From: an uncultured bacterium
Lineage (GTDB): Bacteria > Patescibacteriota > Patescibacteriia > Magasanikbacterales > GWA2-37-8
Direction of reading: 5' to 3'
DNA length: 64,000 bases
NCBI GenBank assembly: GCA_937903605.1
Contig: CALCZC010000025.1
Coordinates: forward strand, 131,275 to 195,274
The stretch's first letter is position 1. Every line of letters begins with the position of its first letter. This document shows positions 35,004 to 55,152 of this stretch, piece after piece. The position numbers and the translations under genes were made by a program. Below the pieces are notes generated by a model that did no database searches, was not told the DNA's origin, and saw nothing but the letters and a program-made list of their open reading frames with translations.

Positions 35004-35160
35004 CACCCTGTGAAATAAGATTTGAGTCTATTTCTTATAAATAATTTACCTTTGTAAGATTTTAAGTACTTTTCCCTATGGGTTGCGTCTTGCTGATTTA
35101 AACAAGCTTCATAATAAACCAGTTTTCCTCCTTTAAAATTTAAAATCATTTCACAGGGTT
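35004..35160. repeat. Family B element: 13-bp inverted termini CACCCTGTGAAAT / ATTTCACAGGGTT around a ~130-bp spacer
   Basis: The same termini occur at 46157-46216 and 55091-55152 with unrelated interiors. It sits between convergent genes, and its right end abuts the dfx stop codon. Confidence 0.5.
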
Positions 35161-35530
35161 AACTTTTCCACAATCCATGTAAATTGCAATAAGCTCTGGC
35201 AAAACCCAGTTCAGTGATATTAAATCTGGCTTCAGGCTTATCCTCCGGTTTTAGATATTTCCTATCTACTTTGTTTTCCGTCACATATTCAATCCATTCT
35301 ATATAATGAGTTTCTTCCATTGGATGTTCTACTGCGCCGATTTTTATCAATACCCCGCTATCATCACGTTCTATCACCGGTACATGTTTTTCCAAACTGG
35401 CATCAACGGTATTTTCTGTCTGCAAAATCATAGGTTTACCGCAACAAACCAATTGCCCAACCCCGGTGTGCACCAATTCTACGATATTTCCACAAACCTC
35501 GCATTTGTATACTTCATTAAGTTTAGTCAT
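35159..35530 (-). CDS. dfx: Desulfoferrodoxin (2Fe superoxide reductase)
   Basis: N-terminal desulforedoxin CEVCGNIVELVH...LVCCG and a C-terminal SOR domain (HYIEWIE, CNLHGLW). Confidence 0.85.
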   Translation of the reverse strand: MTKLNEVYKCEVCGNIVELVHTGVGQLVCCGKPMILQTENTVDASLEKHVPVIERDDSGVLIKIGAVEHPMEETHYIEWIEYVTENKVDRKYLKPEDKPEARFNITELGFARAYCNLHGLWKS

Positions 35531-35661
35531 AAAAGAATAAATTATAATTTCTAAACCCTAAACCCTAAACAATATTCAATATTTAATATCCAATATCAAA
35601 AATTTTTGAATTTAAATTTTTATATTGTTTAGAGATTAGAAATTGGAGCTTAGGATTTCTT

Positions 35662-36186
35662 TTAGTATGTTTCCACAAACACTTCAAAATACCCTTGTGG
35701 ATGAGAACAAGCCGGACATTTATCAGGAGCCTCATCGCCCTCATGAATATATCCACAATTATTACATTTCCAACGTTTCGGCTCATCTTTTTTAAACACT
35801 TCGCCTTTTTCCAAGTTTTCCAATAATTTTTTATAACGAATAGCGTGTTTTTCTTCTACTTCACCAACTTCTTTGAACATTTTAGCTATCTCTGTCTCCC
35901 CTTCTTCAATGGCTTCTTTTTCCATACGCGGATACATATCATTGGTTTCATAAAGTTCACCGGCAATCGCATCTTTTAAATCCTCCGGAAGATCTTTAAT
36001 CATTCCAAGCGCTTTGGCCCAAAGCTTAGCGTGCTCTTTTTCGTTTCCCGCAGTTTCTTCAAAAATATTAGCTATTTGAATGTAGCCGGCTTTACGAGCC
36101 ACGGATGAATAATAAGTATATTTATTGCGAGCCATGCTTTCGCCGGCAAACGCTTCCTCCAAATTTTTCTTTGTTTTTGGACCCAT
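35662..36186 (-). CDS. rbr: Rubrerythrin
   Basis: A ferritin-like diiron domain (EKHAIRY, two E..H pairs) and a C-terminal rubredoxin-like CNNCGY...CPAC. Confidence 0.9.
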   Translation of the reverse strand: MGPKTKKNLEEAFAGESMARNKYTYYSSVARKAGYIQIANIFEETAGNEKEHAKLWAKALGMIKDLPEDLKDAIAGELYETNDMYPRMEKEAIEEGETEIAKMFKEVGEVEEKHAIRYKKLLENLEKGEVFKKDEPKRWKCNNCGYIHEGDEAPDKCPACSHPQGYFEVFVETY

Positions 36187-36275
36187 ACAAAAATAAATTA
36201 AACTATAAATTAATAAATTTGTTTTAAAATAATTTTAACTTCTTATGTTTTTTTGATAGTCTGTTAAATCCTAAT

Positions 36276-36377
36276 TACCAATTCCCAATGACCAAATCCA
36301 TATATATTTTAGGTTTTAAACATTTTAACATTGGTCATTCATTGGGCATTGGGCATTGGACATTGGGGTTTGGTCAT
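36276..36377. promoter_or_regulatory. Repeat-rich putative operator region between divergent rbr and kef: AATGACCAA x3 in alternating orientation plus CATTGGG/CATTGGA tandem heptamers
   Basis: CCCAATGACCAAA ... TTGGTCATTCATTGGGCATTGGGCATTGGACATTGGGGTTTGGTCATTT. Confidence 0.35.
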
Positions 36378-36533
36378 TTTATTCCAAGATTTAGACTCTT
36401 ATAAACATACCACACTTCCCCTTTTTTGCCAACCCACTTGTTTTTTAAAAAAGAAGACTTTTTACTGTTCCCTCTTTTTCAAAAATTTGATATAATTTAA
36501 GCAAAGAATGTATTTAAAAATAATTTCAAATTT

Positions 36534-38237
36534 ATGGAGGACGTTTTTATCCAAATTACTCTGCTTTTAGTATTGACTGTTGGTATTGCTTTTACTGTGA
36601 GACTTTTCAAACAACCACTTATCATCGCGTATATTATCACCGGTATGGTGTGTGGTCCGCTTTTTTTGAATCTTTTACACGGTCAAGAAAGGATGTATGA
36701 AGTATTTGCACAGTTTGGCGTAGTTCTCCTACTTTTTATCATCGGTTTAAATCTCAATTTCAATCATCTCAAAAATATAGGCAAAACTTCTCTGGTTGCC
36801 GGATTGGGACAAGTTATTTTTACCGGGATTATCGGTACTCTGATTTTACTGGCGATGAAAGTTCCGCTTTTAACCTCTGTTTATTTAGCAGTAGCGATTA
36901 CTTTTAGCAGTACTATCATAATCATGAAACTGCTCTCGGATAAAAAAGATACAGAAACGGTTTACGGTCGTTATACTATCGGCTTGATGTTGGTACAAGA
37001 TGTTATCGCCGTACTTATTATGATCGCTTTGGGAGTTTTAAAAAACGCGCAAGGTAATATTTTGGATTCTTTTTCTTTACTTTTTTTCAAAGGTCTTTTT
37101 GCTGTAATTTTTGTCGTGTTACTAGCAAAATATGTATTACCTAAATTTTTGGATAAAATTTCTGATTCCGGTGAATTACTTTTTATTTTTACAGTAGCTT
37201 GGTGTTTTGGTGTCGCATCTTTACTAATGTATTTTGGTTTTTCCGCAGAAATTGGAGCTATTGCCGCGGGTTTGGCTCTGAGTAATTCCCCTTATCAACC
37301 GCAAATAGCCTCTCGCGTCAAACCGTTGCGCGATTTCTTCTTAGTATTGTTTTTTATCGTTTTGGGTAGTGAGATGAACGTCGCTTCTTTCAGTGAGATT
37401 TGGCAACCAGGCTTGGTTTTATCTCTTTTTATTCTTATTGGTAATCCATTTATCCTCTACACCCTTTTCCGTTTGATGAAGTTTACTCGTCGCAACAGTT
37501 TTCTCTCCGGAGTAACGGCGGCGCAAGTGAGTGAATTCGGTTTTGTTTTACTTTTTATCGGTGCTCAAACCGGACATATTTTAGGAAATGAAATTGCTAT
37601 TTTTACTCTAGTGGCTATAACAACCATTTTTATTTCTTCCTATTTGATTTTATATAACGAACAAATTTATCGTTTTTTGATCCCGCTATTTAACTTGTTT
37701 GGTTCAGATAAATATCGTGAACAAGAAAAAGAACCTGGCGGTTTATACGATGTCTGGGTAGTCGGATATCATCGTATCGGTCAAAATGTTTGTGAAACCT
37801 TACAAAAAATGAAAAAGAGGTTTGCAGTGATAGATTTTGATCCGTTGGCGATAAAAAAACTACGCGAAAAAAATATCCCTTCGGTTTTTGGCGATGTGGC
37901 TGATATAGAATTTTTGGCTGATTTGAAATTTTGCGCTACTAAGCTGGTTATTATGACTATCCCGACCACCGATGATCAGCTCAATTTCCTCAACCACTTA
38001 CGCGGTGCTCGTTGTAAAGCTCTTGTTATTGCCAATGCTTATCACAAAACCGATGCCAAAATACTTTATGCCGCAGGTGCGGATTATGTGATGATGCCTC
38101 ATCTTCTGGGCGGAGCTTTTGTTGCACAAATGTTGCAAAAAAACGCTTGGAATAAAAAAACTTTTTCGCTGTTAAAAAAAGAACAGCAAAAAATGATTCC
38201 AGAATCAGGAACATTATTATCTCATCTTTTAAATTAA
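36534..38237 (+). CDS. CPA2-family K+(Na+)/H+ antiporter with a C-terminal RCK/TrkA-N domain (KefB/KefC-like)
   Basis: 12-13 TMs, then VWVVGYHRIGQNVCETL...VIDFD, a Rossmann-type RCK domain. Confidence 0.85.
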   Translation: MEDVFIQITLLLVLTVGIAFTVRLFKQPLIIAYIITGMVCGPLFLNLLHGQERMYEVFAQFGVVLLLFIIGLNLNFNHLKNIGKTSLVAGLGQVIFTGIIGTLILLAMKVPLLTSVYLAVAITFSSTIIIMKLLSDKKDTETVYGRYTIGLMLVQDVIAVLIMIALGVLKNAQGNILDSFSLLFFKGLFAVIFVVLLAKYVLPKFLDKISDSGELLFIFTVAWCFGVASLLMYFGFSAEIGAIAAGLALSNSPYQPQIASRVKPLRDFFLVLFFIVLGSEMNVASFSEIWQPGLVLSLFILIGNPFILYTLFRLMKFTRRNSFLSGVTAAQVSEFGFVLLFIGAQTGHILGNEIAIFTLVAITTIFISSYLILYNEQIYRFLIPLFNLFGSDKYREQEKEPGGLYDVWVVGYHRIGQNVCETLQKMKKRFAVIDFDPLAIKKLREKNIPSVFGDVADIEFLADLKFCATKLVIMTIPTTDDQLNFLNHLRGARCKALVIANAYHKTDAKILYAAGADYVMMPHLLGGAFVAQMLQKNAWNKKTFSLLKKEQQKMIPESGTLLSHLLN

Positions 38238-54382: not shown

Positions 54383-54478
54383 TGGTTATACCTCTCGTAT
54401 GTAGTTAATAAAAAGAACACACTTGTAAGATACCAACTAATTATTAAATAGTCAAAAAAGTTAGTTTTGCTGGCTAAT

Positions 54479-54507
54479 TATTGACAAAAGTCCGAAATTG
54501 CGCTATT
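54479..54507 (+). promoter_or_regulatory. Consensus-like sigma70 promoter (TTGACA-17-TATTAT) for the Cys-rich gene pair
   Basis: TTGACAAAAGTCCGAAATTGCGCTATTAT. It shares TTGACAAAAGT...GC-TATWAT with the promoter at 42182. Confidence 0.5.
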
Positions 54508-54558
54508 ATACGATGATTGTTCATTTTATAAACCACTAACGCAAATGGGAGGTGCGTT

Positions 54559-54756
54559 ATGGAAAACATTCCTAAAAAAGAAGATGACCGTTGTACCTGT
54601 CCGGCCAAGCATTCTTTGACCTGTTGTTGTATTTCTCTGCCTGGTCAAGGAAAGATGCTTTCTCCGTACTGTCCGGTATGCAACGAACGTCCGATGCCTT
54701 CTCCGGATTGTCCGTTGCATGGCGGACTTGCCTGCTATCCCAAAGATATCAATTAA
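54559..54756 (+). CDS. Metallothionein-like small Cys-rich protein (65 aa, 9 Cys, 2 His)
   Basis: SD GGGAGGTG. CTCP...CCC...CPVCNERPMPSPDCPLH. GC-rich. Confidence 0.5.
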   Translation: MENIPKKEDDRCTCPAKHSLTCCCISLPGQGKMLSPYCPVCNERPMPSPDCPLHGGLACYPKDIN

Positions 54757-54777
54757 CATTCATAAAGGAGGTACTTC

Positions 54778-55038
54778 ATGTGTCATGACAATTGCGAATG
54801 TGATGGAAGCTGTGGAGATGACTGCAGATGCAAAAGGTTGCAGCCGGTAACGGTCTACTGCACCTGTCCGGGACAAAACAGTGCGAACTGTTGTTGCCCG
54901 GATGACGATCTGAATCTCTGCTGTCCGCAGCACAACGAACGCCCCAAACCGGCATCAGATTGTCCACTGCACAAACATCTGGAATTCTTTCCGAGAAATG
55001 CGAAGAAGTCGATGATTAGATGGGTTCTCCCCAAATAA
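54778..55038 (+). CDS. Metallothionein-like Cys-rich protein (86 aa, ~16 Cys), paralog of the upstream gene
   Basis: SD AAAGGAGG. N-terminal CHDNCECDGSCGDDCRC, then CTCP...CCCP...NERPKPASDCPLH shared with the upstream protein. Confidence 0.5.
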   Translation: MCHDNCECDGSCGDDCRCKRLQPVTVYCTCPGQNSANCCCPDDDLNLCCPQHNERPKPASDCPLHKHLEFFPRNAKKSMIRWVLPK

Positions 55039-55090
55039 TCTCTCTTTTTCGTAAAATTCAAACGGCCCACTCGCGTGAGCCGTTTTTTTT

Positions 55091-55152
55091 ACCCCGTGAA
55101 ATTTTGTCCGCCGTGGCGGACGAACCTGCCTTTGGCAGGATTTCACTGGGGT
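55091..55152. repeat. Family B element: ACCCCGTGAAAT / ATTTCACTGGGGT termini enclosing two hairpins
   Basis: Internal hairpins GTCCGCCGTGGCGGAC and CCTGCCTTTGGCAGG. It lies between convergent genes just after a terminator. Confidence 0.5.

Follow-up and report, generated by a model that had tools for sequence, protein, structure and literature searches.

Several described classes of bacterial palindromic or selfish DNA resemble the short, arm-bounded element that occurs three times in the 64-kb stretch of DNA analysed here (contig CALCZC010000025.1 of an uncultured Magasanikbacterales bacterium; the whole stretch is called the window below). The REP sequences and REPIN doublets that go with RAYT are short dispersed intergenic palindromes, some of them in tandem, with a nuclease gene flanked by inverted repeats and with copies that persist at orthologous sites across related species; it was proposed that the enzyme acts on hairpins in single-stranded DNA (PMC3116915, PMC2817692, PMC8266576). 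[quoted passage not shown] Members of the IS200/IS605 group end in hairpin-forming sequences, insert next to a short specific target that is not duplicated and have small non-autonomous hairpin derivatives. The spread of free-standing GIY-YIG homing genes was proposed to occur through a break followed by repair-mediated copying. In genes of this kind (T4 Seg, I-TevI type) a catalytic domain is carried by a small selfish cassette lying between genes (PMC1564403).

The elements described here form a family that is present in several copies per genome and at places in tandem arrays, that is found in frame within genes, and that is recurrently present or absent at one site. The arms change in a compensatory manner and close a conserved fold, and the same arms flank a gene encoding an 84-residue GIY-YIG protein. 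This last link is the decisive one and was missed by the original prediction, which had described conserved termini around free and unrelated interiors; copy 1 reads as a decayed GIY-YIG gene, of which intact copies with the same termini exist. On balance we consider it probable that the family consists of small palindromic selfish mobile DNA elements, comparable to REP/RAYT or to MITEs, that are linked to the GIY-YIG nuclease.

The GIY-YIG gene, its arms and the decayed copy in the window

The 84-residue protein belongs to the GIY-YIG superfamily and, within it, to the stand-alone Slx1-like/UPF0213 branch with a domain of about 80-100 residues, as defined by Dunin-Horkawicz et al. (PMC1564403). 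It has 1302 relatives, mostly from Patescibacteria groups by name, with 936 representatives at 50% clustering (E<=1e-10), and full-length relatives carry PF01541. Its predicted catalytic residues are retained: no variation was seen at Y19, R26, H30 and E62, and at least 90% of the sequences agree at Y3, Y5 and Y16. The nearest PDB entries, 1zg2 and 1ywl, are both UPF0213 proteins. A homing endonuclease of the I-TevI or Seg type was considered and rejected, as the 84 residues hold no extra domain and TIGR01453 scored 18 bits against a cut-off of 56.

In the full-length element, which measures about 285 bp, a 5' arm reading (G/A)CCCYGTGAAAT is followed by a leader of 14-25 nt (with a recognisable ribosome-binding site in some copies), the gene and a 3' arm, ATTTCACRGGGT, that usually codes for the last four residues (Y-F/L/Y-T-G) and the first base (T) of the stop codon. 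Arms were present in 9 of the 9 independent lineages of the arm-bearing GIY-YIG subfamily that were readable. Furthermore, the two arms were found to change together. An ending in YFTG (TTC) pairs with CCCTGTGAAAT at loci L006 and L229 and in copy 1 of the window, YLTG (TTA) pairs with CCCTGTTAAAT at L013, L223, L224 and L233, and YYTG (TAC) pairs with CCCTGTGTAAT at L225. L091, more distant at 54% identity, has kept the pair CCCTGTGTAAT / ATTACACAGGG (GTGTAAT/ATTACAC) even with its 3' arm 10 nt beyond the stop codon. The three end variants (GTGAAAT, GTTAAAT and GTGTAAT) therefore shift on both sides together, and since the gene loci had been picked by protein similarity and not by their arms, the arm test was unbiased. 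The pattern indicates that arm complementarity is under selection and is not a by-product of coding. It was suggested in the original prediction that the termini are a pairing or recognition feature of a repeated element, a view that is supported by the co-varying arms and by their link to the gene.

Ordinary UPF0213-type GIY-YIG genes (L085, L129) are without arms. The arm-flanked cassettes are wedged into very tight gaps between co-directional genes; a few nucleotides separate the upstream stop codon from the 5' arm, and the ATG downstream comes 0-3 nt past the stop. An intact gene with flanking arms is also present in Moraniibacteriota CP064975. In one case (L224, and also an ERZ1426545 contig) the arm-flanked gene, P0023, has as neighbours, at a distance of about 400 nt, a bAvd-like gene and a reverse transcriptase, a pair that is typical of a diversity-generating retroelement.

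In the window, pairs of inverted ends were found at all three of the expected places, reading ACCC(C)(N)GTGAAAT / ATTTCAC(N)GGGGT, which is far more than expected by chance. The 12-mer occurs 7 times in the window at no more than one mismatch, against 0.73 expected, and none of 100 shuffles reached 7; the paired-arm pattern gave 4 strand-matches against 0.00 expected and was absent from all shuffles. We regard it as very likely that the three features are members of this mobile family. They are spaced 9-11 kb apart among housekeeping genes.

Copy 1 (35005-35159, minus strand, arm to arm) holds both arms, a 5' untranslated region (UTR) with AGGAGG, and codons ~45-84 of the GIY-YIG gene. Its arm ACCCTGTGAAAT (35005-35016, plus strand) reads ATTTCACAGGGT on the minus strand, where it codes for Y-F-T-G and the T of the TGA stop, and its other arm, ATTTCACAGGGT on the plus strand (35148-35159), is on the minus strand the 5' arm upstream of the ribosome-binding site. 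The two are perfect complements (12/12) and enclose 131 nt, the fold of which is not significant. As had been noted, the copy abuts the dfx stop codon: the last A of the dfx TAA is also the A of ACCC in the 5' arm (minus strand), so that one base is common to both. In a tblastn comparison positions 35125-35006 showed 95% identity to residues 45-84 of protein P0003, and the last 40 residues are also 95% identical to P0002. When compared with the 5' UTR of the intact gene at L229, the leader of copy 1, GATTTTAAATTTT(A)AGGAGGA, runs straight into codon 45 (KLVYYEAC), and about 135 bp must therefore have been deleted. Lost with them are the start codon and, from the N-terminal part, the GIY, YIG and Arg motifs. 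A fortuitous open reading frame (ORF) of 48 codons (35003-35149, minus strand) begins at an ATG inside one arm, reads in frame through the 5' UTR and codons 45-84 and ends at a TGA just past the other arm; against the Pfam GIY-YIG family it gave a weak match to the C-terminal half only (E 0.045). Judged by its sequence, copy 1 is a dead, internally deleted gene copy wedged against the dfx stop codon, and the 48-residue ORF is the predicted product of a pseudogene that lacks the catalytic N-terminal half. The 48-residue "gene" is called in public assemblies, and annotators would gain a recognisable repeat where small ORFs are now miscalled.

Miniature copies and the evidence of mobility

The other two copies in the window are miniatures. 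Copy 2 (46157-46216) has the arms ACCCCTGTGAAAT (46157-46169) and ATTTCACGGGGT (46205-46216), of 13 and 12 nt with one bulged T, which enclose the hairpins GGCGC-TTT-GCGCC and AATTTTTGTT-AAAA-CAAAAATT; with zero linker nucleotides these make a perfect three-way junction. In copy 3 (55091-55152) the arms are ACCCCGTGAAAT (55091-55102) and ATTTCACTGGGGT (55140-55152), of 12 and 13 nt, again with one bulged T, and the hairpins are TTTGTCCGCC-GTGG-CGGACGAA and CCTGCC-TTT-GGCAGG. Read on either strand, both copies fold into a 12-bp closing stem with one bulged base and two hairpins (z -6.3 to -7.6), in agreement with the two small hairpins first described for each of them. The interiors of copies 2 and 3 thus have an architecture in common and that of copy 1 is a gene remnant, so that they cannot be called free or unrelated.

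Copy 2 is preceded directly by an intrinsic terminator of the thyX-like gene (46224-46249, minus strand) and is followed closely by a promoter-like site of metK (46093-46122, minus strand; TTTACA-18-TATAAT with TG, 11/12 matches), and therefore lies in a terminator-to-promoter gap. Directly before copy 3 a terminator-like hairpin and T-run belonging to an 86-residue gene could be read from the sequence (55062-55090, plus strand); it was not called in a simple scan because its stem holds a mismatch. Behind these terminators, in gaps that are quiet in terms of transcription, copies 2 and 3 are most likely neutral passengers.

Further copies, which the original prediction had proposed to look for, are numerous, clearly against the outcome (no copies elsewhere) by which it would have been downgraded. 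An exact-pattern scan with one genome per species returned at least 120 further loci, many of them on long contigs, which span Patescibacteria, Bacteroidota, Desulfobacterota, Cloacimonadota, Ignavibacteria, Gammaproteobacteria, Binatia, Bdellovibrionales and others. Fold and arm statistics were taken from 128 unique copies, folded with DNA energy parameters. Three-way junctions were formed by 81 of the 128, 54 of these 81 without an unpaired junction nucleotide, and the median interior z was -3.3. The elements measure 45-70 bp and their arms 12-15 nt, usually lengthened to TTCACCC...GGGTGAA. Although the arms are perfectly complementary in only about 45 of the 128 copies, every departure is a mismatch, a wobble or a 1-nt bulge at one and the same position, between CCC(C) and GTG. 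The interiors form lineage-specific subfamilies and the arms are universal. As in the gene-bearing form, variant arms (GTTAAAT, GTGTAAT, GTGAAAC, GTTAGAT) each come with a matching partner, and in one metagenome-assembled genome (MAG) two copies with a common hairpin have GTGAAAT and GTTAAAT arms, respectively. Many of the hairpins are of the GCGAAGC/GCAAAGC type, which is unusually stable as a DNA mini-hairpin. The context is mostly intergenic, with 49 copies between co-directional, 15 between divergent and 13 between convergent genes; the preference for 3' ends of genes that had been noted thus describes the window and does not extend to the family. Among 2.9 million viral contigs, searched for possible carriers, only distant GIY-YIG relatives (best 37-47% identity) and one miniature were found.

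In one Patescibacteria subfamily (L037, L038, L050, L063, L069, L104, L113 and L128) the element is followed by a conserved flank of about 45 nt, GGGGTGATGATTTTTATAGTCGCTTCACTCCTTAAAAATCAATC-ATG, that leads directly into diverse genes, among them Fpg (MPELPEV) at three loci and a DnaQ-like exonuclease at one; the unit repeated with this flank may supply the gene downstream with a promoter or leader. Longer elements that are possibly related, with interiors of 60-100 nt and the arms CCCCGTTAGA(T/A/G) / (A/T/C)TCTAACGGGG, were also seen (L015, 2651-2750 and 3982-4083; L074, 180-279 and 1336-1432; L078, 1980-2072; L083, 4103-4163).

Several observations bear on mobility. Copies are dispersed within genomes, with at least 7 in one Rikenellaceae MAG and 3 in the window; several copies per MAG have common interiors at different loci, and in tandem arrays a 4-nt TGAA/TAAA spacer stands between GGG and CCC at 8 of 8 junctions. 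Conserved genes carry at least five copies in frame, flanked by domains on either side (Mur ligase, Wzt ABC ATPase, DegT aminotransferase, MtaB and TatD); these copies are translated as S-P-R-E-I...I-S-Q-G or P-V-K...F-H-G-V-K. For MtaB of Cloacimonadota both states were found, with an 18-residue insert between FRYS and PRPNT present in four proteins and absent from seven. The empty allele reads TAT TCT CCT CGT CCC and the filled allele TAT TCA CCC CGT (54 nt ending GGT GAA CCC CGT) CCA, the insert being exactly 54 nt. It adjoins a native pseudo-arm, TATTCTCCTCGT (TATTCTCCTCGTCCC in the empty gene), at a site that resembles the outer arm TTCACCCCGT, and the filled allele looks like a tandem junction made onto the pseudo-arm. 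The sole repeat at this site is CCNCGT, which is part of the arm-like target. A 48-nt stretch of the insert is identical (0/48 differences) in two host genes whose proteins share 75% identity and in which about one quarter of the flanking bases differ. Since filled alleles occur in two clades, each with empty sisters, the element must have been inserted at this site more than once or else have been lost precisely more than once.

The site of copy 3 was likewise found in several states, with the same miniature in a 90% relative (L239), a tandem array in a 77% relative (L241), in which one hairpin is swapped for a different hairpin, and no element in a 78% relative (L240). Copy 2 is identical at the same site in the close relatives L129 and L130; an empty site was not found among these two, both of which are filled, and the next relative, L131, is not syntenic.

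Other features of the window were recorded near the copies. Upstream of metK (45922-46077, minus strand) there is a sub-threshold match to the SAM riboswitch RF00162 (27.4 bits, where the gathering score is 44.4; E 8e-4), which sits downstream of the strong promoter-like site at 46122-46093 and is probably a divergent S-box leader. Downstream of metK a 95%-identical relative differs in content (L129, 3760-4500, compared with window 43880-44575): where the window has a DUF333 gene, the relative carries an unannotated ORF, flanked by metK and by an ordinary armless UPF0213-type GIY-YIG gene. Degenerate short tandem repeats stand right after the YibE/F stop codon, before the miniature, in the window (55153-55187, GTAAGC-like units), in L239 (3093-3180, (T/C)CATAAAGT) and in L241 (3093-3130, GACTACA-like). 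The YibE/F protein of the window, whose host is a Patescibacteria bacterium, has its best matches among named Magasanikbacteria proteins, at 78% identity. The longest imperfect inverted repeat of the window (40257-40441; 33-nt arms, 73% complementary, 119 nt apart, with AGATTTT-like heptamers) is placed in the gap between a YgjP-like and a PIF1-like gene. Finally, a region of about 1.3 kb (31700-33028) is without a convincing ORF and has a GC content of 0.41-0.50, compared with about 0.25-0.35 in most of the neighbouring sequence. An 11-nt pair within it (32108/32500, ACCCTGATAAT / ATTATCAAGGGT) was not counted as a member of the family, as the enclosed 84-residue ORF (32134-32388, minus strand) is without GIY-YIG signal and gave no Pfam match. 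Rfam at E<=1 had no match inside this region, the sole match being a chance snoR25 at its edge (33021-33079, E 0.43); the region may be an unrecognised structured RNA.

Proposed mechanism and rival explanations

We propose that the miniatures keep only the arms of the full-length element, the gene having been swapped for two small hairpins. A strand of the element, in extruded or single-stranded DNA, would fold on itself so that the arms make a 12-15-bp stem closing a three-way junction, with one position between CCC and GTG left free and often mismatched or bulged, and the conserved arms would be recognised as a stem in DNA of this form. The encoded nuclease would then act in trans on arms or arm-like sequences and produce a break, after which a copy would be pasted by repair synthesis beside an arm-like target. 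Homing-like copying of this kind would leave the 4-nt TGAA spacer and would produce no target-site duplication of the generic kind. The structure-specific GIY-YIG nuclease would be the most economical choice for an enzyme that initiates the copying, and for its driving mobility by a homing-like route we would give slightly less than an even chance. Somewhat more tentatively, the family might represent an unrecognised pan-bacterial class in which a bare 84-residue nuclease recognises the junction or stem and brings about homing-like copying of itself and of 45-70-bp miniatures to arm-like targets, some of them in frame within essential genes. Such a class would be a GIY-YIG counterpart of REPIN/RAYT, common to Patescibacteria, Bacteroidota, Desulfobacterota, Cloacimonadota and others.

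Several points weigh against this proposal. That a GIY-YIG protein cuts or mobilises these structures is something we infer from sequence. The gene was found within 8 kb at only 2 of about 120 miniature loci, the 64-kb window holds a dead copy only, and a separate DNA-binding domain is lacking from the 84-residue protein. For the homing-like mechanism the basis is one verified filled/empty pair, 8 tandem junctions and four suggestive flanks. Target-site duplications, a check that the original prediction had proposed, were looked for at the window copies and at the gene insertions, and none of a fixed length was consistent; the MITE-like reading stands as the closest of the candidates first put forward, with the qualification that this mark is missing. 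Furthermore, covariation alone cannot assign the pairing of the arms to DNA rather than to RNA.

Alternatively, the miniatures might be the primary, independent element and the GIY-YIG gene an invading free-standing homing endonuclease gene, a parasite and not the mobiliser, with the spread due to hairpin template switching in replication or to another enzyme. Miniatures do far outnumber genes in the loci that were read, the gene always lies between the arms, where miniatures hold their hairpins, the 3' arm at L091 is outside the ORF as would be expected of an inserted gene, and insertion beside arm-like microhomology could come about by template switching without a dedicated nuclease. However, in most lineages the ORF is fused with the 3' arm and the distance from 5' arm to start codon is short and fixed, suggesting a long-integrated unit; the protein is very highly conserved across phyla, with arms in every subfamily member read; and an enzyme-directed process would explain better than random slippage why an identical insert recurs at one exact site. 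We consider such a parasitic origin of the gene unlikely. Less likely still is that the elements act as RNA, as a three-way junction that stabilises or terminates transcripts or as a small RNA, with mRNA 5'-3' pairing that controls stability or translation in the gene form, and with the spread of copies as a secondary matter. The strong predicted folds (z about -6 to -7.6), the compensatory arm changes, the position of all three window copies at 3' ends next to terminators and the Patescibacteria subfamily that has a conserved leader and stands upstream of diverse genes at a distance of about 45 nt would all agree with an RNA function. Nonetheless, Rfam gave no match in the whole window at the gathering threshold and nothing relevant around the three copies at E<=1-10. 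The orientation relative to flanking transcription was the same in 9 and opposite in 9 of the 18 orientable copies between co-directional genes, neither loops nor wobble pairs showed a strand bias, and both strands fold equally well; an orientation shared by the three window copies was not upheld when bulge position, G-type flank and loop sequences were compared. Copy 2 has a terminator on one side and the next promoter on the other, and other copies lie in frame inside coding regions. An intrinsic terminator was rejected as well, because the stem is followed by no T-run (the arms are followed by AAATC, AAATTC or TAACTT) and separate canonical terminators stand beside copies 2 and 3. The idea of a long closing helix of a terminator-like RNA was thus right as to structure, because the termini do close a three-way junction, and probably wrong as to the terminator-like RNA.

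Two further candidates, attC-like integron sites and sites of a CRP/FNR-type or other dimeric regulator, appear to us very improbable. As in attC, the elements have imperfect inverted repeats, an extrahelical base and a variable centre, and the TGTGA...TCACA core recalls CRP. The RYYYAAC / GTTRRRY (R''/R') cores are lacking, however, as the right ends read GGGGTAAAT, GGGGTGAAT and GGGTTAACT, there is no integrase context, and the wide spacing of the window copies among housekeeping genes is not that of a cassette array. An arm spacing of 35-260 nt is incompatible with a dimer, as had been argued from the outset, and the TGTGA core co-varies with its TCACA partner (GTTAAAT, GTGTAAT), unlike a fixed protein site. 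A selfish element acting at the level of DNA is therefore favoured, because the folds are strand-symmetric, orientation and loops show no bias, a copy lies in a terminator-promoter gap, other copies lie in coding regions, and the hairpins are of stable DNA mini-hairpin types.

If the proposed role of the nuclease is true, it would provide a function for part of the large stand-alone UPF0213/Slx1-like branch, for which none was described in the literature searched, would add a new enzyme class to the few proteins that propagate bacterial palindromic repeats, and would account for the insertions of 15-22 residues that recur in conserved enzymes of uncultured phyla. A direct test of the mechanism is feasible with an 84-residue protein, a 60-nt substrate and one natural filled/empty pair defined to the base.

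Comparison with known systems

No description of GIY-YIG genes linked to such repeats, or of the motif, was found in the literature searched, the coverage of which was incomplete, so that a prior description is possible; a 2024 review of prokaryotic MITEs does not mention GIY-YIG (PMC10969869). In logic the closest analogue would appear to be REP/REPIN with RAYT. Unlike in that system, the flanked gene encodes a PF01541 GIY-YIG protein of 84 residues and not an HUH/Y1 transposase, the ends read (T)TCACCC / GGGTGAA(A) and carry no GTAG/CGTC tag, and a three-way junction with two inner hairpins takes the place of the single REP hairpin or the REPIN doublet. REP sequences are also lineage-specific, whereas the arms described here are common to many phyla, and in-frame gene insertions are found here.

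Like MITEs, copies 2 and 3 and the 128 unique copies consist of terminal inverted repeats that bound a short non-coding sequence, and the family is dispersed and multicopy, with filled and empty alleles (mtaB and the YibE/F site). In contrast to MITEs, the longer relative encodes a minimal nuclease in place of a DDE or other known transposase, regular duplication of the target site was not found, the target resembles the element's own end, and the interiors are lineage-specific hairpins and not deletion remnants of a parent. RPE share the in-frame position with the family but measure about 100-150 bp, are confined to Rickettsia and have no known enzyme, whereas the present elements measure 45-70 bp and occur in many phyla; there is no sequence similarity between the two. 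The IS200/IS605 elements differ in having TnpA (Y1) or TnpB, neither of which is found here, and in that the ends of the present family are true inverted repeats of each other. Homing enzymes of the Seg and I-TevI type have 200-250 residues with DNA-binding modules and are without inverted termini or miniatures, whereas the protein described here is a bare catalytic domain of the Slx1-like/UPF0213 branch. The family therefore belongs to none of the REP/RAYT, MITE, RPE or homing-gene classes.

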